The notes under the pieces were generated by a model. It made no database searches. It worked only from the letters and a program-made list of their open reading frames with translations, and was not told where the DNA came from. A DNA stretch of 63,597 nt, filler included, from Collodictyon triciliatum (taxonomy: Eukaryota), in NCBI GenBank assembly GCA_043381765.1. It is 12 parts of 12 records of this genome, joined end to end, with 100 filler letters (N's around TTAATTAATTAA, not from the genome) between each part and the next. Parts side by side here need not be neighbours in the genome. Positions count along the whole stretch, not along the records: positions 60,293 to 63,597 come from JBHJMP010005453.1; 11 more parts are not named here. One strand, given 5' to 3'. A program made the position numbers and the translations under genes. Shown here piece by piece: positions 17,945 through 63,597 of this stretch. Within the stretch, counting starts at the first letter, position 1; every line of letters starts with the position of its first letter.

Positions 17945-18044
17945 NNNNNNNNNNNNNNNNNNNNNNNNNNNNNNNNNNNNNNNNNNNNTTAATTAATTAA
18001 NNNNNNNNNNNNNNNNNNNNNNNNNNNNNNNNNNNNNNNNNNNN

Positions 18045-21000
18045 GATGGCTCTAAAATCGTTTCTGGAAGTGATGATAATACAGTCAAAATTTGGAATCT
18101 TTCTGATGGAGCTTTGATTCGCACGTTGACTGGTCATACTAGTGTTGTTTCCAGTGTTACTGTTACTCCCGATGGCTCAAAAATTGTTTCTGGAAGTGCT
18201 GATAGAACAATCAAAATTTGGAATATTTCTGATGGAGCTTTGATTCGCACATTGACTGGTCATAATAGTCAAGTTTACAGTGTTGCTGTTTCTCCTGATG
18301 GCTCAAAAATTGTTTCAGGAAGTTTTGATAGAACAATCAAAATATGGAATCTTTCTGATGGAACTTTTATTCGCACGTTGACTGGTCATACTGGTTATGT
18401 TATGAGTGTTGCTGTTACTCCTGATGGTTCAAAAATTGTTTCTGGAAGTGCTGATAGAACAATCAAAATTTGGAATATTTCTGACGGAGCTTTGATTCGC
18501 ACATTGACTGGTCATACTGATATCGTTTGGAGTGTTGCTGTTACTCCTGATGGCTCAAAAATTGTTTCTGGAAGCAGGGATACAACAATTAAAATTTGGA
18601 ATCTTTCTGATGGAGCTTTGATTCGCACATTGACTGGTCATACCAGTAGTGTTGATAGTGTTGCTGTTACTCCTGATGGCTCAAAAATTGTTTCAGGAAG
18701 TAGGGATACAACAATTAAAATTTGGAATCTTTCTGATGGAGCTTTGATTCGCACATTGACTGGTCATACTAGTTATGTTAACAGTGTTGCTGTTACTCCT
18801 GATGGCTCAAGAATTGTTTCTGGAAGTTATGATAAAACAATCAAAATTTGGGATGCTCCAGAGTTACTTTGTTCTGCTGGTCAGTTTTATGATACAGTTA
18901 CAAAGTCATGTCAACTATGCCCATCCGGAAGCTATAGTGCTGGAGGTGCCTTGTCTTGTTCTTCATGTCCTGCTGGCACATACAATCCTTCAACAGGTTC
19001 TACAAATGTTGGTGCTTGTATATCATGCGCAGCTGGCACATACAATCCATCAACAGGTTCTACAAATGTTGGTGCTTGTATATCATGCGCAGCTGGCACA
19101 TACAATCCATCAACAGGTTCAACAAGTGTTGGTGCTTGTCTTTCATGTGCAGCTGGAACATACAACCCATCTGTTGGTCAAGCAACATGTCTTTCATGTG
19201 TAGCTGGTACATACAACCCATCAACGGGTTCTACAAATGTTGATTCCTGTCTTTCATGTGCAGCTGGCACATACAATCCATCAACTGGTAAGTCTGCTTG
19301 TCTTTCATGCGCAGCTGGAAAATACAATCCATCAACAGGTTCTACAAGTGTTGGTGCCTGTCTTTCATGTCCTGCTGGCACATACAATCCATCAACGGGT
19401 TCTACAAATGTTGATTCCTGTCTTTCATGTGCAGCTGGCACATACAACCCATCAACAGGTTCTACAAATGTTGGTGCTTGTCTTTCATGTGCAGCTGGCA
19501 AATACAATCAATTAACTGGTCAAGCAATCTGTCTTTCATGTGCAGCTGGCACATACAATCCGTCAACCGGTCAAGCAACCTGTCTTTCATGTGTAGCTGG
19601 TACATACAACCCATCAACGGGTTCTACAAATGTTGGAGCCTGTCTTTCATGTGCAGCTGGCACATACAATCCGTCAACCGGTCAAGCAACCTGTCTTTCA
19701 TGCGCAGCTGGCACATACAACCCATCAACAGGTTCTACAAGTGTTGGAGCCTGTCTTTCATGTGCAGCTGGTACATATAATCCATCAACAGGTTCTACAA
19801 ATGTTGGTGCTTGTCTTTCATGTGCAGCTGGTACATATAATCCATTAATTGGTCAAGCAACCTGTATTTCATGTGCAGCTGGCACATACAATCCATCAAC
19901 AGGTTCTACAAGTGTTGGAGCCTGTCTTTCATGTGCAGCTGGCACATACAATCCATCAACAGGTTCTACAAATGTTGGTGCTTGTCTTTCATGTGCAGCT
20001 GGTACATACAATCCATCAACTGGTCAAGCAACCTGTATTTCATGTGCAGCTGGTACATACAATCCATCAACTGGTCAAGCAACCTGTCTTTCATGTGTAG
20101 CTGGTACATACAATCCATCAACTGGGCAGTCTGCCTGTATTTCATGTGCAGCTGGCACATACAACCCATTAATTGGTTCTAAAAGTGTTGGAGCCTGTCT
20201 TTCATGCGCAGCTGGCACATACAATCAATTAACTGGTCAAGCAATCTGTCTTTCATGTGCAGCAGGTACATACAATCCATTAATTGGTCAAGCAACCTGT
20301 ATTTCATGTGCAGCTGGTACATACAATCCATTAATTGGTTCTACAAGTGTTGGAGCCTGTCTTTCATGTGAAAATGGAACATACAACCCATCAATTGGTC
20401 AGTCTACCTGTATTACATGTGCAGCTGGAACACACAACCCATTAATTGGTTCTACAAGTGTTGGAGCCTGTATCTCATGCGCAGCTGGCACATACAATCC
20501 ATTAATTGGTCAAGCAACCTGTCTTTCATGTGCAGCTGGCACATACAACCCATTTATTGGTCAAGCAACCTGTATTTCATGTGCAGCTGGTACATACAAT
20601 CCATCAACTGGTCAAGCTACATGTCTTTCATGTGCAGCTGGCACATACAATCCATCAACGGGTTCTAAAAGTGTTGGAGCCTGTATTTCATGTGCAGCTG
20701 GTACATTCAATCCATCAAGTGGTTCTACAAGTATTGCTGCCTGTCTTCCATGCGCAGCTGGCACATACAATCCATCAAGTGGTTCTACAAGTATTGCTGC
20801 CTGTCTTTCATGCGCAGCTGGCACATATAATCAATTAACTGGTCAAGCAACCTGTCTTTCATGTGCAACTGGCACATACAATCCTTTAAATGGCTCTTCT
20901 TCTATTGAGAATTGCTTATCGTGTGAACCAGGAACATTCAATGATAAAAAGGGGCAAATTAAATGTAATCTATGTGAGCCAGGAACTTACACCAGCGATA

Positions 21001-23234
21001 AAGGAAGGAATATTTGCCAAGATTGCCCACCTGGGCAATACAACAGCAAATACGGTGAAATGGAATGTACTTTGTGTCCTTCTGGGACATACAACTCTTT
21101 TAAAAAGAGTAACAGTTCTTCATTCTGTATTGAATGCGAACCAGGAAATTTTAATAGTGTGATTGGACAAGATAAATGTGATGAATGTCCCACCGGGTTC
21201 TATTCGAATGCAAGAGGACAGAAATTCTGCTCGCCATGCTCTTTTGGACAATACTCAAACAGAACAAAATCAACAGCATGCGAACTATGTCCAGAAGGCA
21301 CATTTAATACAAATATAGGTTCCCCTAACATCGAAAGCTGCCAAAGCTGCCCTCAAGGAACATTCTCATCTGTTTCAGGAAAACTTGTGTGTGATTTGTG
21401 TCCCCCTGGAAAATATAGCGATTTACCAGGTCAAAATAATTGTTTCATATGTCCCAACGGAACTTATAGCACCACCTATGGAGCAACTAGTCTAAATTCT
21501 TGCCTTAAATGCCCTGTTGGAACCTATGGAGACGAAACGAAAATCTCTTGCACCTCATGCCCAGCTGGCACATTCAATAATATCGAGGGCTCATTCGGAA
21601 TGTCTTCATGCATGAAATGTTCACAAGGAAGTTACAGTATAAGAGGTAGCTCAACTTGTACAGAGTGCTCACCTGGATATTTTGCACCGGATTTTACTGT
21701 GAATGGTTGTGGCAAGTGCCAAGCTTGTGCAGAAGGCACGTACAACTCAAACTCGGGCTCATATGGAAACAAATCATGTATCGAATGTCCACAAGGCACT
21801 TGGAATGATAAAGATGGTCAAGCATCATGCTCATCGTGTCCAGCTGGTACATTCAACAATAAAACTGGCTCACTAAATCAATCGCAATGTATTTCATGTC
21901 CAAATGGAAGCTACAGCTCAGAAAGAAGCTCATCATGTAGTCTATGCTTATCAGGATATTATCAAAAAGAAGACATTATAAAAGACTCAAGCTCATGCTA
22001 TGCTTGTCCAAAAGGCACATTCAACTCAAACTCCGGCTCATATGGAAACTCATCATGTATCGAATGTCCACAAGGTACTTGGAATGATAAGGATGGTCAA
22101 GCATCATGCACATCATGTCTAGCCGGAACATATAATAACAAAACTGGCTCACTAAATCAATCGCAATGTATTTCATGTCCAAATGGAAGCTACAGCTCAG
22201 AAAGAAGCGCATCATGCAGTCTATGTTTATCAGGATTCTATCAAAAAGAAGACATTATAAAAGACTCAAGCTCATGCTATGCTTGTCCAAAAGGCACATT
22301 CAACACGAAATCCGGCTCATATGGAAATAATTCATGTATTGAGTGTCCACAAGGTACTTGGAATGATAGAGATGGTCAAGCATCATGCACATCATGCCCA
22401 GCTGGTACATTCAACAATAAAACTGGCTCACTCGATGAATCATCATGTATTACATGTCCAAATGGAAGCTACAGCTCAGAAAGAAGCTCATCGTGCACTT
22501 TGTGCTCATCAGGATTCTTTCAAAAAGAGGTAGTCGCAAAAGACCAGAAATCATGCTATGCTTGTCCAAAAGGTACATTCAACTCAATATCCGGTTCATA
22601 TGGAAATGCATCATGTATCGAATGTCCACAAGGTACTTGGAATGATAGAGATGGTCAAGCATCATGCACATCATGTCTAGCTGGGACATTCAACAATCAA
22701 ACTGGTTTATTCAATCAATCATCATGCATTTCATGTCCAAATGGAAGTTATACTCCAGAAGGAAGCGCATCATGCAGCTTATGCTTATCAGGATTCTTTC
22801 AAAAAGAAGGAATCATAAAAGACTCAAAATCGTGCTATGCTTGTCCAAAAGGCACATTCAACTCAATATCCGGCTCATATGGAAACACATCGTGCACCGA
22901 ATGTCCACAAGGCACTTGGAACGATAGAGATGGTCAAGCATCATGCACGTCATGTCCAGCGGGTACATTCAACGATAAAACTGGCTCATCCGATCAATCA
23001 TCATGTATTTCATGTCCAAATGGAAGCTACAGCTCAGAAAGAAGCTCATCATGCAGTTTATGCTTATCAGGATTCTTTCAAAAAGAAGGAATCATAAAAG
23101 ACTCAAAATCGTGCTATGATTGTCCAAAAGGCTCATTCAACTCAATATCCGGTTCATATGGAAATGCATCATGTATCGAATGTCCACAAGGTACTTGGAA
23201 TGATAGAGATGGTCAAGCATCATGCACATCATGT
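18045..23234 (+). CDS. WD40-repeat protein fused to a long Cys-rich (ephrin-receptor-like/GCC2-GCC3-type CxxC) repeat array; intronless, partial at both ends
   Basis: One open frame spans the whole 5190-bp contig. It holds 6.5 GH...W(N/D) repeats with a 126-nt period (18045-18853), then dozens of C-x-x-G-T-Y/F...C-x-x-C units. Confidence 0.92.
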
Positions 23235-23497
23235 NNNNNNNNNNNNNNNNNNNNNNNNNNNNNNNNNNNNNNNNNNNNTTAATTAATTAANNNNNNNNNN
23301 NNNNNNNNNNNNNNNNNNNNNNNNNNNNNNNNNNTTTTGGTTTTTTTGGTTTTTTTGGTTTGTTTGTTTTTTGCTCGAGTAGCAAGAAAAAATGAACATC
23401 ACTACATAGAAATAACGACATGATAGTATCGATAATGTGTCATGATTTTTTAATCACTATTATTTACATTTTCAAGGTATGTTGTTGTATTCAATTA

Positions 23498-52619: not shown

Positions 52620-54170
52620 GCATCTAGGGCTTAAATAGGGGATGGCGAATATCATGCGGCTCTTTTCACATACATCTCTTCCATTGATATCACAGTATGG
52701 AAGAATGAGTGTACGTCAGCAAGCTATTCAAGAGGCTGTATTGGACAAGGCTTTCCCGCCTGGATAGATAGATTTCTCGTCTCATCAAGTAATACGCTGA
52801 AAGAAGCACCCATACCACATGAGGACCGCATCATATGTCTTCCTTGTGACTTCCCACAGCATCCTAGAGTAGTGTGGCATTTGGTATTGCGCGCAAAATA
52901 GGATGTTGGAGGTCTGAGTTGATCAGGAGCACAATCAATCTGGCACATCTTCTTGTGAGCGGATTCGATTACTTTTTGAGAGAGCACTAAATAAGCGTGA
53001 ATTCGATTGGGTTGTATCCAATGGGGCTCACGCTGCATCGTGGGGAAGTTATTGTTGCATGGAATACACGCACAGCTATCTAGAGCTCTCCATCACCGAT
53101 ATTGAGCAGTAAAGTACAGTATCTTGAAATTCGGGCGAGTGCGATGGATAAGATGCCAGAATACTCGCTGTCAAAATCCTTTCGGATGGGTAAGCATATT
53201 TGTCCACCATCTCATCGCGAGCGATGTCCATGCAATACCAGGCGTTATGGGTCCCAGTCCTCCCTCTGTAGGTGGCTTAGTGAGCGTCTTGATATTATAT
53301 TCTGATTATTCGTAGTGATGAAGTTGCGGCAGATGTCTTCCAGCTCCTTCAGCCTCTTGAGGTTCAGCAAAGTGCCTTTCATGTGGTAGATAAGGGTCGA
53401 CACCATCACTTGGTTCCAGAACCTTACTTTCCCCACGTCCGAGAGATGAAAGTTGCTCCACACTGATATTTTCGACTTGATGTCCTCAACCGGGCTTGTC
53501 CATTTGTTATCCGATTGTGGACCGAAGATGATACCAAGATACTTGAGTGGATGTGACGGTGGCTTCCACACGATGTTCCCTAGAAACATATGTGCATCCT
53601 GAAAACCGAAAAGAATTCCATCTGTCTTGTCGTAGTTGATTCTTCTGCTGACAGCTCGTGTGTATTCTTGCATGCATTTGTTGGCGAGTGTGGCGCCTTC
53701 GGGAGACCGTAAGATGAATGCTATGTCGTCTGCATATTGAAGTAGCAGTTGGTTGTGCACCTTGTTTTGGTTTCGAAAGTGGTTTGCAAGGCAGTCAGCG
53801 ACAAAGTTGCAGAGCAGTGGTGCAAGTGGGCAGCCTTGATACACCCCGCTCTGTCTTTGAATTGCATCAGTATGTCCGTGTGCCGTGGGTATCCTCGCTG
53901 TTGCATTGTCGTGCAGTTTCTTGATAAGACTGGTGAATCCGGTGCAGAAGCCTCTTTTGTGTAGGATGGTTTCCAGTGCTTCATGTTTCACATAGTCGTA
54001 TGCTTTCTCCAGGTCGTAGAAAATCACAGCGACGGGTGTCCCGCTTACTTGATATTCCATGTACTCTTTGTTGACAAACCAGGTGTTTGTGTCGATGTTC
54101 CTTCCGTTCATGAAGCCAATCTGCTCTTTGGATATGAGTTGGTCGGTGATGGGTAATATGCGATTTCTGA
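52620..54170 (-). mobile_element. 5'-truncated, degenerate non-LTR retrotransposon (L1/Tx1-like RT)
   Basis: RT motifs ISKEQIGFMNGRNI, FYDLEKAYDYV, GVYQGCPLAPLL, LQYADDI, INYDKT, LKYLGI. After a frameshift comes PTEGGLG and then an in-frame TGA. No endonuclease domain is present. Confidence 0.92.
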
Positions 54171-54647
54171 GTAATTAATAAGGCAGTACAGCATCGACGC
54201 GCGTCAACTGGGGTGTTGAAACTAGATGGTCTGTAACTTTTGGAATTTTTTTTTATTTTTTATGTATTTATTGGTTTAAGATTTGGCGTAACAATCATAT
54301 TGTTATGTATATTTAGTGCGGATTAAACAGACTTTCCTTCGTTTTCAATTTTTGTGTTTGTTTCGTCGATTTCCTCCCGAAAGCCAAAGTGTGCTTCTGC
54401 ATACTTAGAATGGTATCAGTTACAAAAGTCCAGAAACCGCAAAAGCCGCCCCGATCGAAGTAGCAACAGCAACAAGCAAAAGCTAATTACCTATTCAACC
54501 AGACAGTAAACATCTTTTTCGTGTCTTCCAATACACTTATGCCTCACCAACCTTCTTATGACAACACGGAAGATTATCCTCTTGTTTCCCGCACCCGTAT
54601 TTTTTGGTTGTTTTAGTTTGTTTTAGTTTGTTTTGCTTTTCATATCC

Positions 54648-59665: not shown

Positions 59666-60420
59666 CTATAGTAATTTTAGTATGTAAGAGAGTGTGTATC
59701 ATTTGTCGTCATCATTCCCTTTGATCCTTTTGTTTAACCCTCGGCAAGCAAACAAATTGAGTGAGAACTTATAGTTTGTGGACAGGTTTGAATATGATAA
59801 AGTACGATAATAAAGAATAGCATGTAGAGTAGCCATGTTTCAAATAGAAATGTTGGACGTATGAGGGAAAATCCTTTCTCTTTTCTTTCTAACACGTGTT
59901 GGTTAGATGTAATTGAGTGCAGAACTTTCATCATAATTTGGTAGCATACATACAAAATAATTGCTTGGTGTGTACAAGTGTGCATATAAGCTCATGTATA
60001 AGCAGCAATTTCTCTTTACAAGAAAAGCTGTGGAAGACTTAACATTGCGCTTCTTGTCAAAGAAAGAGAAAGACAAAGACAAAGACAAAGACAAAGAGAA
60101 AGAGAAAGAGAAAGAGAAAGAGAAAGAGAAAGAGAAAGAGAAAGAGAAAGAGAAAGAGAAAGAGAAAGAGAAAGAGAAAGAGAAAGAGAAAGNNNNNNNN
60201 NNNNNNNNNNNNNNNNNNNNNNNNNNNNNNNNNNNNTTAATTAATTAANNNNNNNNNNNNNNNNNNNNNNNNNNNNNNNNNNNNNNNNNNNNTTTTACTT
60301 TTTTACTTTTTTACTTTTTTACTTTTTTACTTTTTTACTTTTTTACTTTTTTACTTTTTTACTTTTTTACTTTTATTATGTGAATTATTCACTTTTACAA
60401 TAATGATTAAAAAAAATTAC

Positions 60421-60657
60421 CAAAAATGTTAGCCATTTGTTCGTCTGGAACTTTGCCTCCACTTCACGGAGAATGGCTGCATCGGCGTCCTGAACATTCT
60501 CATTCCTATTCCAGACAGCAGACAAGTCACCAACATCCATCAACCCAGCTGATGCTGTGGAAGAGAGAGACATGCGCTTCGTGTCTCGATTCAGCTTGTC
60601 ATAGCCAGTCCCGCCAGTCTCTTTCTTCAGTCTGTTCAACTCTGTATCATACGACAT
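60421..60657 (-). CDS. First exon of a hypothetical protein
   Basis: MSYDTELNRLKKETGG...EVEAKFQTNKWLTFL is followed by a GTAATT donor running into the terminal microsatellite. Confidence 0.45.
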
Positions 60658-61754
60658 CTCCTTAACTGTCCAGCGGCTCTCTATTGTTCCTTTATATTTT
60701 GGATGCATGTATGAACCAATTAGTTGTCAGGTATTAAAACCACTACATACGTATTCATCACAACGAGTTGGAGTGATATTTTCTAGACAGGGTCTGAGTT
60801 CATAAATATCTTAGTCAAAAGTGGTACATATATCAGTACATAACGCCACAGAAAAGAGATTGCCGATCCACAAGAGCGTCCCAAATTAATATACTACTTT
60901 CAAAGGTTTACCACCGCATGCAAGGGACTTTACCTCTTGCAGTACTTAGTATTTAAGCAGTGAAGAAATTGAGGGGAGGTTAAATCTCTGCTGCAGTTAA
61001 TTGGCTAGTAAGACAGAAAGGAAAAGGCCAAGTCAAGAGAGCAGGGGATGGGGTGTAGGACTACAGAGCCAACTTTCTCTTGCCCTTCTTGCTCCCTCTG
61101 TATTCGATAAGTAAGACAGCAATACCAAGAGCGTGTGGTGTGTTTCTGTGTCGATGGTGCGACAATAAGAGTATGTGTGTCCCAGATAGCACAGCCGTGA
61201 AAATTATGGAGTTGGTAAAGAGTTATGCGCCTGGTGAAGCCGAGGGCTCGTGGGTTTGTGGGCGGGTGCTTCTGCTAGCGCTGCCGGTAAGTGGTACTTC
61301 TGCGATGCCTGTGCGAAAGGGGGTGCAAATTATCGCCAAATCCACGCGGTGATGTATTCCGAACCTGTCAAGCACTCCAGGGGAGAATCAGGACATTCAA
61401 TGAAATACGAGTCTGTGGGGCGATGGGCTAATAGATGCGTTCGTTGTAACCGTCCAATATGTCCAATTATGCAATTGTATTCCGTTGAATCCAAAGTTGG
61501 GCTGGTTTTCCATATGAAATACGAGACTAATAAATGTTCATTGAAGAGATTGGTATTTCAAATGAGACAGGGTTTCATAATATTGAAAATATATTTTACT
61601 ATTGGAATTAGATCCTGCCCATTATTATAATAATCTAGTATAGTTAAATCAAATATATTCCATATTAAGATGATACTTCTGGATTTGATAAGGCAAAAAA
61701 AAAAAACTGCCTCATGGCATAGAATCTGTTGCGGCCATCTCAAGCATTTTTACA

Positions 61755-61875
61755 TTGTACTAGGAGTACACCATCTTTCGATCGGTAAACCTGGTGTGCT
61801 AGTATCCAAGGTCTCACCACTTTTTTCACAAAGATTGTGTAATGGCGAAGGCTGCCAGGAATGACCCAACAACCT
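61755..61875 (-). ncRNA. Candidate Fanzor omega-RNA scaffold
   Basis: Three consecutive stem-loops lie directly 3' of the Fanzor ORF. The first two have seven G-U pairs that form only on the minus strand. Confidence 0.65.
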
Positions 61876-61887
61876 TTTTTTTTTTTT

Positions 61888-63597
61888 AGAGGAAGGTGTA
61901 TGCATATTTTGAAGAATTGGAAGAACTTTGTTGAGTATATTATAGGCGCTTTTAAAGTCCCTTGTCAAGAATACACTTTGTTTGCTTTCTGAGCGATTGC
62001 ATTCTTTACATATGAGACATCTATACTCCTTTTTTTGAATTTCCTTTCAGTATTATATATTCTAGTTCTTTTTCGCAGTGGCGACACATCTTGGAGGTTC
62101 TAAATTCACCTACACTAATTTTTCAAAACGTTTGGATGGTATTTTTCGTAATCCCCTTCCGATTGTTGGCTTATAATGCTTCATCGGACATTTTCTGCTC
62201 CAGTCTCCATACGCCGGCATAACGTCCTTGCCAAATGTCTTTTCGATTCGGTTCATAAACAACTGTTCACTTCTTTTTGTTTTAACACACTGTCTCCATC
62301 TCATCTTTCGAAAAGTCACTTGCTCATAAAATCTGAATGATTATATCTGGTATCTTGATTCCATAAATACATATTTTCTATTTATTTTTTTTCATAATCG
62401 ACCGTGCATGAATTATGTTTACTCAGTCCTGTCTCTAAATCGATTAAAGATACTCTTGATGTCTCAAACTGCTGATTCTCTTCAAAAGTCCTGAGACCAA
62501 AAGAAACAGCACTTTGTAAATCTGTTGTCATGCATATACCAAAATGATTGTACTTTACTTTTTTATTTTCGCGCAAGAGTATTTTGTGATTTTTAAGAGA
62601 TTTGCTATAATGTCTTCTTTGGTGAGCCGTGTAACGTAATTTCTTACCTGTCTCATCTACCATGTAAACCAAATTAAACTTGCCTGCGTCCACTCCAACT
62701 ATTTTTTTCCCTAATAAAGATAACTGCTCTTTGGAAAGTTCATCTATATAAACATATTATTGGTTCTTTTGATTATATTTGATTCTTGAATTTGAAATAC
62801 CTTTCTTCTCTAACAAAATGACACCACCAAGCCGTCTGTTTGTATCATGTATGTAAAATAGTAGTCTCTTTGATGAAATATCCTCTTCTTCATTTCAAAG
62901 AACTCATCCCATATGGTCTCTTTGCATCCTGATACATTCTTCAGTAATAATTTTTTTTACAGATGATACTAATAGATCAATCAAACATGCAGTAGCTAGA
63001 GTAATATGACATGGTATATTGTTAGTTCTTATAGAGATTGGTTGAAGCAGTTTGGTCCCAATGTCATCAAAAATGTGATTCATGTAAATCAGACATGGAA
63101 TGTACTTATTTGGAATGACTTTGACGTCATATTCGATACCTTTTACAATATCGCTGGTTATGATATGATGCTAACGCGTTGTAGCCCATCCTTTATATTG
63201 TTCCGGTATTTCGAGTTTCTTGAAGATGGCTTTTTTTTAACCTTCGTAACTCCGCCTTTTTAATAGCTTCTGTAATATTCTCATCTTAAGGAACTATTTG
63301 GTTTATAAAGCGCAGTAACCTCTTTACAAAATGTTCCCTTATGTTATTATGATAAGTTGCTAGCACTTGCTTCGCTAAGTACGGTAATACATGAGACGGT
63401 CCAACCAACGGAAAGCGTTCTTCTCGGGACAAAAGGAATCGAAAATCATATAGATAGAAAGCCATCATATCTTTACTCAAACCTGGATGGTTTAAAAATG
63501 CGGGTCTATCTTGTGGAACTATTCCGACTGTCTTTAAAGCGTACAAAAAAAAAAAACACATTTCATCGATTGTTGGGTGTTGTTGTGCTTTCAATAT
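61888..63597 (-). pseudogene. Fanzor1 (eukaryotic TnpB/Cas12-related RNA-guided nuclease), inactivated; the 5' end lies beyond the window
   Basis: Motifs in order: NNIREHFVKRL, YDVKVIPNKYI, QPISIR...IP, MIQTDG, RuvC-I VGVDAG, KLRYTAHQRR, YGDWS, PTIGRGLRK, RuvC-II EFRTSKMCRHC, CKEC, RuvC-III TRDFKSAYNIL. Premature stops at 63286 and 63171, plus several frameshifts. Confidence 0.9.

Follow-up and report, generated by a model that had tools for sequence, protein, structure and literature searches.

A decayed Fanzor1 copy in Collodictyon triciliatum with relatives in giant viruses

The DNA analyzed in this report, hereafter the window, is a stretch of 63,597 nucleotides (nt) made up of 12 joined parts of the Collodictyon triciliatum assembly GCA_043381765.1, with N filler between the parts; positions 60,293 to 63,597 are from JBHJMP010005453.1. 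Its last part carries, on the minus strand, a broken gene of the Fanzor1 type. Fanzor1 proteins are RNA-guided RuvC endonucleases of eukaryotes and giant viruses and belong to the TnpB-Cas12 superfamily. The locus is very probably a dead Fanzor1 copy, the remnant of a small DNA element that was bounded by inverted repeats and encoded Fanzor. An original prediction made from the sequence had called it a decayed Fanzor1, and that assignment is supported by the match of one fragment of the window itself, by the matches of an intact relative, by a family profile (E of 7e-105 to 4e-74 against solved Fanzor1 proteins), and by the modeled fold (template modeling [TM] score of 0.75 to the Spizellomyces Fanzor1, SpuFz1).

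The intact relative, P0001, is a protein of 648 amino acids (aa) that was found by searching the 124-aa RuvC-I frame of the window against 5.8 billion proteins; it is 65% identical over that piece. A tblastn search of P0001 against the whole window matched this locus only, in three pieces (E = 6e-148), the next matches having E values above 6. The stop-to-stop frames of the minus strand from 63597 to 61500 show nuclease pieces scattered over all three frames, and a frame-aware alignment from 63570 to 61838 pairs 565 codons with P0001, 342 of them (60.5%) identical. The prediction of a protein of more than 550 aa is thus borne out. The frame runs open into the end of the window, which therefore excludes about 70 N-terminal codons as well as the element's 5′ end.

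Seven fragments of the window searched against Pfam gave nothing meaningful, and neither the RuvC-I fragment nor the C-terminal fragment found a Fanzor match in the PDB. The fragment at 62110-62340 (76 aa, including GDWS) by itself matches the Parasitella Fanzor1 (PpFz1) there, with an E value of 1.3e-3. In Pfam, P0001 has only a weak Cas12f1-like TNB match (E = 0.11), and in the PDB it matches the Guillardia Fanzor1 (GtFz1; 2e-28), PpFz1 (3e-24), and SpuFz1 (4e-23). A phmmer search of P0001 against 1.84 billion representative proteins returned 3147 proteins with E values up to 1e-3, of which 537 reach 1e-30 or lower. From 42 near-full-length relatives of P0001, 29 of which match the Pfam family PF07282 (Cas12f1-like TNB), we built the family profile A1. 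Compared with solved proteins, this profile matches SpuFz1 with an E value of 6.7e-105 over profile positions 7-602 of 611, PpFz1 with 2.5e-100, and GtFz1 with 3.8e-74. The same search otherwise returned LaTranC alone, at about 7e-4; TnpB and Fanzor2 were absent at E ≤ 1e-3.

The predicted fold agrees with this full-length homology. An AlphaFold2 model of P0001, built from the 42-sequence alignment (mean predicted local distance difference test score [pLDDT] of 85.3, predicted TM score of 0.83), superposes on SpuFz1 with TM scores of 0.75/0.79, on PpFz1 with 0.67/0.61, and on GtFz1 with 0.63/0.67. The corresponding values are only 0.21/0.28 for the mimivirus Fanzor2 and only 0.20/0.32 for the ISDra2 TnpB, the first value of each pair being normalized by the query, a comparison that favors Fanzor1, and Foldseek relates the model to TnpB and Fanzor2 with E values of 2e-4 and 4e-5, respectively. 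The relatives are about 600-650 aa long and so do not resemble the compact TnpB/Fanzor2 type of IS200/605 and IS607 elements, with about 400-470 aa and a TnpA partner.

The active site can still be followed through the damaged copy. In SpuFz1, E541, D383, N385, and D606 coordinate two Mg ions (Saito et al., PMC10432273), and the signatures described for Fanzors are DPG, an alternative Glu, and a TDG motif in the WED domain (Yoon et al., PMC10711439). The solved SpuFz1 chain carries a 394-residue tag; its residues 777, 935, and 1000 are D383, E541, and D606. The Asp of the DPGK motif of the family aligns to chain residue 777, at the RuvC-I catalytic position. Fanzors have Gly or Pro in place of the canonical RuvC-II Glu, with an alternative Glu about 45 residues downstream (Jiang et al., PMC10530073). 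The family follows this pattern as well: E555 (NEFRTSK) aligns to chain residue 935, and G521, invariant in the 42 relatives, is retained in the window. The Glu of EFRTSK had been predicted to be the RuvC-II Glu. A catalytic Glu is indeed present there, but it is the relocated one, because GDWS holds the invariant Gly at the canonical position and marks the site that was vacated. For RuvC-III, a profile of 23 viral C-termini combined with the window's own frame aligns the Asp of TRD to chain residue 1000, the catalytic D606.

Outside the catalytic triad, the four Cys of the zinc finger (C562, C565, C587, and C590), which are invariant in the eight closest relatives, are all retained. So are the three residues of the TDG motif, where T312 is invariant and D313 and G314 are at least 90% conserved in the 42 relatives. 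There are 13 columns invariant in those relatives; the window keeps P254, T312, D364, Y481, G521, E555, S559, R603, D604, and N610 and has lost the Pro of DPG, E391, and N606, which adjoins the catalytic Asp. The window keeps 43 of the 60 columns that are invariant in the eight closest relatives and has lost 10, with 7 falling outside it. Every feature listed in the original prediction, including the motifs GVDAG (Asp at 62688-62690), GDWS, EFRTSK, the four Cys, TRDFKS, and IQTDG, was found where it had been placed, in a minus-strand reading. The catalytic and zinc-finger codons are still readable because decay is incomplete. The positions of these features, and of those discussed below, are collected in Table 1.

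Table 1. Positions of the Fanzor1 copy, its motifs, and its lesions in the window
Feature	Position	Strand	Basis or remark
Fanzor1 pseudogene body	61838..63597	-	Frame-aware alignment to P0001 residues 72-642
In-frame stop TAA	63286-63288	-	Alignment to P0001
Frameshift in A8 run	near 63231	-	Alignment to P0001
In-frame stop TAG	63171-63173	-	Alignment to P0001
Frameshift in A8 run	near 62948	-	Alignment to P0001
T-D-G of IQTDG, WED-domain motif	62831..62839	-	Retained in window
Frameshifts, not in long homopolymers	near 62818, 62375, 62121	-	Alignment to P0001
In-frame stop TAA	62757-62759	-	Alignment to P0001
RuvC-I D-A-G	62682..62690	-	Asp codon 62690-62688 (GVDAG) aligns to SpuFz1 D383
Stretch of about 33 aa common to window and P0001	62453..62549	-	P0001 residues about 409-441; absent from 7 more distant relatives
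In-frame stop TAA	62382-62384	-	Alignment to P0001
In-frame stop TAA	62341-62343	-	Alignment to P0001
G-D-W-S, canonical RuvC-II position with invariant Gly	62197..62208	-	Aligns to SpuFz1 GDWS
Alternative catalytic Glu of EFRTSK	62105..62107	-	Aligns to SpuFz1 E541
Zinc finger CxxC...CxxC	61999..62088	-	Cys codons start at 62086, 62077, 62010, 62001; interrupted by A7 frameshift
Frameshift in A7 run (62030-62036)	62029..62036	-	Alignment to P0001
R-D of TRDFKS (RuvC-III)	61957..61962	-	Asp aligns to SpuFz1 D606
3′ tail to probable right end of repeat unit	61766..61837	-	Related-contig cover stops within 61764-61827

The conserved body of the gene contains a total of five in-frame stops and six frameshifts. 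An extra stop and an extra shift, at 61888 and 61893, fall in a poorly conserved tail where the alignment is weak. The stops at 63286 and 63171 and the frameshift in the A7 run at 62030-62036, named in the original prediction, are confirmed by both sequence and alignment, but that list under-counted the damage. The window copy thus lacks the uninterrupted reading frame of a Fanzor1, and with five stops, six frameshifts, and three of 13 invariant residues lost it is unable to cleave.

Contigs related to the locus were aligned from four sequencing runs, two of which, X2 and X6, are small runs of coded organisms A and B. The other two supplied one metagenome contig each. X3 record 12 covers 62029-62257, including the non-homopolymer shift at 62121, with zero differences; it belongs to a separate data set, possibly of the same organism. 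Over 62480-62729, X1 record 2 agrees in every letter apart from one gap. The two coded organisms contribute 313 and 298 contigs on 61764-63597, at 85-99% identity and with up to 20 distinct contigs per position. By identity, the X2 contigs divide into 24 at ≥99%, 66 at 95-99%, 132 at 90-95%, and 91 below 90%, and those of X6 into 25, 78, 102, and 93 in the same classes. At several lesions and lost conserved residues (e.g., 62343, 62609, 63158/63159, and 63360), all or nearly all contigs have another letter. Length differs in only some of the related contigs at three of the shifts (near 62030, 62118-62121, and 62953), so some lesions are common to several copies. From these differing letters and lengths at the lesions, we conclude that the window copy is probably one decayed member of a diverged multi-copy family.

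The same material bears on whether the gene could be alive, its breaks being homopolymer assembly errors, TAA and TAG codons recoded as sense, or unrecognised introns. We consider this almost certainly wrong. Homopolymer errors could be suspected at the A7-A8 runs, which hold three of the six shifts; the other three lie outside long homopolymers, and the exact-match contig from another data set spans the one at 62121. Recoding might be suspected from the stops, all six of which are TAA or TAG. We rejected an alternative genetic code nonetheless, since the six frameshifts are beyond repair by recoding, and elsewhere in the window the standard code gives frames of 1761 and 1063 aa without a stop. 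The substitution of three invariant residues also speaks against a living gene.

As for introns, one X2 contig joins position 62434 to 62648; the 213 nt that it leaves out are bounded by GT..AG when read on the gene strand, with a short direct repeat at either side. An intron at 62435-62647 was rejected. The joint is read as a deletion derivative among the family copies, since it removes the family-invariant LRYTAxQRR stretch and occurs in one contig only. The copy had been predicted to be intronless within an intron-dense genome. It is colinear with P0001 and is intronless in that sense only; the intron density of the genome is not established, and the uninterrupted frames of 1761, 1063, and 634 aa in the window argue against a uniformly intron-dense locus. 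The NUDIX gene of the window appears to be split. The segment of about 33 aa common to the window and P0001 (Table 1) may be a lineage-specific insertion or a read-through in-frame intron, judging from the aligned sequences; within it, P0001 residues 416-439 have pLDDT values below 50 in the AlphaFold2 model and are modeled as disordered.

The nearest labelled relatives of the window copy are in giant viruses. In a protein atlas, used as a lead only, look-alike clusters are 92-100% viral, mostly Nucleocytoviricota. Viral contigs scanned with P0001 alone gave no relative, and a scan of IMG/VR with an eight-sequence alignment gave 546 candidate stretches, 449 of which encode relatives. The best of these are 44-47% identical over P0001 residues 1-648 and lie on contigs from giant-virus metagenome-assembled genomes (MAGs) up to 289 kb long. 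Eighty of the 449 loci were kept for a check of their open reading frames (ORFs), and all 80 are uninterrupted, with 555-637 aa. A metagenome scan added a single locus, distant at 21% identity. Among full-length representatives, P0005 is closest to P0001 (48%), and an ORF of one giant-virus MAG contig matches it at 88% identity. When unlabelled neighbors were compared with viral contigs, one of five, P0012, had a near-identical counterpart (92%); P0014, P0015, P0020, and P0022 had none.

Two trees were calculated, one by FastTree with 210 rows and one by a quick IQ-TREE analysis with 53 rows and the distant L001 as its root. The window and P0001 form a pair in both (support 100). In the IQ-TREE phylogeny, this pair is sister to a viral group consisting of L002-L006 and P0005 (Shimodaira-Hasegawa-like approximate likelihood ratio test [SH-aLRT] 94, not starred), and the pair and its sisters belong to a clade of 22 rows, 11 of them viral (support 90). 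In the FastTree phylogeny, the pair falls within a 15-row group of unlabelled proteins, and that group is sister to L002-L006, P0005, and P0018 (support 88). Kinship with giant-virus Fanzor1 is thus evident at the level of sequence. The trees place the window and P0001 next to the viral Fanzor1 group, but they do not nest them among viral sequences. The original prediction had suggested possible acquisition from a giant virus; the kinship with giant-virus MAG Fanzor1 stands, but the trees show neither a donor nor a direction of transfer, with the window clade placed beside the viral group and not inside it. That the copy is a fossil of a giant-virus-vectored invasion, in which a Fanzor1 element with inverted-repeat ends, from the clade abundant in freshwater and marine giant-virus MAGs, jumped from a virus to this probably aquatic eukaryote, was amplified to dozens or hundreds of copies, and then died, is a tentative idea that we regard as possible but doubtful.

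A more direct viral connection would be that the locus marks one border of an endogenised giant-virus insertion (GEVE) carrying Fanzor elements, as in Chlamydomonas. The location of the nearest labelled relatives on long giant-virus MAG contigs, the similarity of P0005 to a viral ORF, and the viral atlas clusters are in keeping with such an origin, and there is a precedent in Fanzor1 elements found both in a GEVE and in a host-chromosome fragment at 80% nt identity (bioRxiv 10.1101/2024.09.03.611062). We nevertheless judge it improbable. Ten ORFs of the window, eight of them between 53.2 and 61.6 kb, were scanned with Pfam; two matched, a reverse transcriptase (RVT_1) of the long interspersed nuclear element (LINE) type and a NUDIX protein, and none belonged to a viral family, so that neither hallmark genes of nucleocytoplasmic large DNA viruses nor other viral genes were found next to the locus among them. 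The related-contig cover ends about 70-120 nt from the end of the ORF, which suits a small unit and not a long viral block. The identity of the copy to sampled viral proteins reaches only 44-47%, and the sister position of its clade is likewise unfavorable. The flanks, with microsatellites, the LINE reverse transcriptase, the NUDIX gene, and no viral family, look like host DNA.

Contamination or a mis-join to the scaffold, either of which would make the stretch foreign to the host genome, is very unlikely. The stretch sits at the very end of the window, after a last N block at 60249-60292, and no public sequencing run contains at least half of its sampled words. No RNA run is listed among the holders; water metagenomes, partly compared, share 0.06-0.12 of the words and name no habitat. 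Against contamination, 3.3 kb of uninterrupted sequence links the stretch to AT-rich, microsatellite-bearing DNA like that in the rest of the window, and so many lesions are more in keeping with a large eukaryotic genome than with a virus or a bacterium, all 80 of the viral relatives examined being intact.

The viral relatives provide a view of what an intact element of this kind looks like. Similarity at the DNA level among about 70 viral copies extends outside the coding region by only about 75-120 nt after the stop codon and by about 400-460 nt before the start. On the right side the edge is very sharp, coming after AAAGGTGTAA, and its reverse complement forms the edge on the left; the left end reads TTACACC... 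and the right end ...GGTGTAA. In all 24 loci for which both ends were found, the unit measures 2243-2457 bp and its inverted repeats 28-40 nt. The same 24 units all have a small ORF, Lys/Glu-rich and 86-99 aa long, between the left inverted repeat and the Fanzor start (e.g., L013:4949-5221, L014:7598-7891, L045:7639-7935, and L001:2048-2308). At the nine loci where the sequence was inspected, it is on the Fanzor strand and is coiled-coil-like, with conserved YYEKNK and AYLxKKEKL motifs and a C-terminal ENI; it has no Pfam family above the cut-off and may encode a partner protein of the viral Fanzor1 elements.

The viral units also carry a structured RNA at the 3′ end of the gene. RNAalifold applied to 60 viral copies gave three helices (24 pairs) between the last ~90 nt of the ORF and the right repeat. 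In these helices, 97.6% of cells pair, compared with about 50% when the partners are slid, and there are 77 double-change cells, compared with 21.6 in shuffles, none of 500 shuffles being as high. A covariance model of this RNA, R1, finds it exactly at the ORF end of more distant loci (L001, E = 2e-6; L083, 2e-5; L003 and L005, 8e-5; L002, 7e-4; and L004, 1e-3), even in L001, a relative with only 21% protein identity. The viral 3′ RNA agrees with Fanzor1 guide RNAs, in which the inverted repeat is part of the scaffold (PMC10711439).

At the corresponding end of the window copy, cover by the 313 and 298 related contigs falls to zero between 61827 and 61764, which probably marks the right end of the repeat unit, and none of the contigs compared covers 61700-61763; the left end of the unit lies outside the window. 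The window tail ends in GGTGTA, after TTTACC, and the viral right ends read TTTTACC...GGTGTAA; we regard this as a resemblance and not a test. Further occurrences of the putative end motif in the window do not exceed chance, and neither Rfam, at gathering thresholds, nor a tRNA scan found anything in the window.

Several observations weigh against reading the locus as the remnant of a mobile Fanzor1 element. One concerns the D-P-G signature at RuvC-I, which reads D-A-G in the window; the Pro, residue 365, is invariant in the 42 relatives, P0001 included, and is Ala here. We read D-A-G as probably one decay lesion, in a copy that descends from the family without showing the signature itself. 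A second concerns the guide RNA. R1, run with filters off over 61000-63597, has no match at the ORF end, the best hit (E = 0.27) being inside the gene, and the fold of 61760-61990 is no better than that of shuffled sequences (z = -1.14), so that neither covariance model nor fold reveals a structured guide RNA (omega RNA or reRNA) at the 3′ gene end in the window; R1 was built from copies about 39% identical in protein, and a diverged RNA could therefore be missed. Third, the evidence for a multi-copy family comes from the two other coded organisms, in runs that may be DNA or RNA, and not from this genome. Finally, the left end, inverted repeat, target-site duplication, and partner transposase are unseen, and the only mobile gene nearby is the LINE reverse transcriptase, 7.7 kb away in window coordinates. 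A dead Fanzor1 copy nevertheless remains, in our judgment, the best account of the locus as a whole.

If this account is correct, the ancestral element would have been a single-gene unit of about 2.4 kb with terminal inverted repeats of 28-40 nt, as seen in the copies of giant-virus MAGs. By analogy with SpuFz1, the structured RNA reaching from the last ~90 bases of the gene to the right inverted repeat would load into the nuclease, and this omega RNA or reRNA would guide double-strand cleavage beside a short adjacent motif. The targets of the nuclease would be DNA that matches the sequence flanking the element at its right end, with an active site formed by the RuvC-I Asp, the relocated Glu, and the RuvC-III Asp. 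RNA-guided double-strand DNA cleavage is known for SpuFz1 and others (PMC10432273); for the present family, we infer both this activity and its role in the life cycle of the element by analogy.

Of the known systems, SpuFz1 (PDB 8GKH and 9CEU-9CEZ) resembles the window copy in full-length profile homology, in fold, and in the alignment of the window Asp/Glu/Asp to D383/E541/D606. The single gene in an inverted-repeat unit (Spu-1; PMC10432273) is also in common, seen here in the viral relatives. The two differ in that sequence identity is about 20% and the window copy is broken and has no demonstrated omega RNA; at RuvC-I, SpuFz1 has D-P-N, the family D-P-G, and the window D-A-G.

The Fanzor1 copies of giant-virus MAGs (L002-L006, with about 75 further loci, L007-L081) share the same catalytic and zinc-finger columns, include the nearest labelled relatives at 44-47% identity, and have the GGTGTA(A) right end. 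Unlike the window copy, they are intact in 80 of 80 cases and carry a covarying 3′ RNA whose model has no match at the ORF end of the window copy, and their units have the small upstream ORF and a left inverted repeat, whereas the left end of the window copy lies outside the window.

For the Fanzor1 of the Chlamydomonas reinhardtii endogenous giant virus, compared here by its description (bioRxiv 10.1101/2024.09.03.611062), the likeness is a family common to virus and host, with degraded host copies and fragments. Those elements differ in having a Tc1/Mariner-type transposase and 80% nt identity between virus and host; no transposase was seen in the window, and the nearest viral protein is only 44-47% identical. 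The ISDra2 TnpB (PDB 8H1J) and the mimivirus Fanzor2 (PDB 9B0L) share the superfamily, the RuvC fold, the zinc-finger insert, and RNA-guided cleavage, but the window family is about 250 aa longer, with the REC/WED insertions of Fanzor1 and the TDG motif.

Some other features of the window have no apparent bearing on the Fanzor1 copy. A reverse-transcriptase frame at 53245-54174 on the minus strand (RVT_1, E = 1.4e-23), probably of LINE type, shows no relation to it. The 1761-aa uninterrupted frame is at 17997-23282 on the plus strand, with both ends in N blocks, and encodes WD40-like repeats followed by dozens of Cys-rich repeats of the GTYNPSTG type. A sulfotransferase-like ORF has look-alike clusters from Mollusca and Haptophyta in the protein atlas, again a lead only. 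The N runs between 5193 and 60292 come as pairs of exactly 44 N with 12 bases between them, every 5.27-5.29 kb apart from one interval of 7.46 kb; such regular spacing looks like masking or a convention of the assembly and not like gaps of natural origin.

Fanzor1 has already been described from fungi, protists, arthropods, plants, and giant viruses (PMC10432273), and degraded Fanzor copies common to an integrated giant virus and its algal host have been described (bioRxiv 10.1101/2024.09.03.611062). In the literature searched, no paper names Fanzor1 together with Nucleocytoviricota; the supplements of the surveys (PMC10432273 and PMC10530073) may list the clade or the host. The locus is a real yet ordinary relic of a known nuclease family, and as a gene, being a dead copy of a type known already, it has no importance. 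Its interest is that it points to a eukaryotic lineage whose multi-copy Fanzor1 family stands close to a very large clade of giant-virus sequences. The description of that clade, with its units, inverted repeats, 3′ RNA, and upstream ORF, could aid the mining of natural Fanzor/omega-RNA pairs. Should a virus-vectored invasion prove true, the locus would be a datable record of the virus-to-host spread of RNA-guided nucleases, and the lineage would be worth searching for intact Fanzor1/omega-RNA pairs and for the upstream partner ORF of 86-99 aa.

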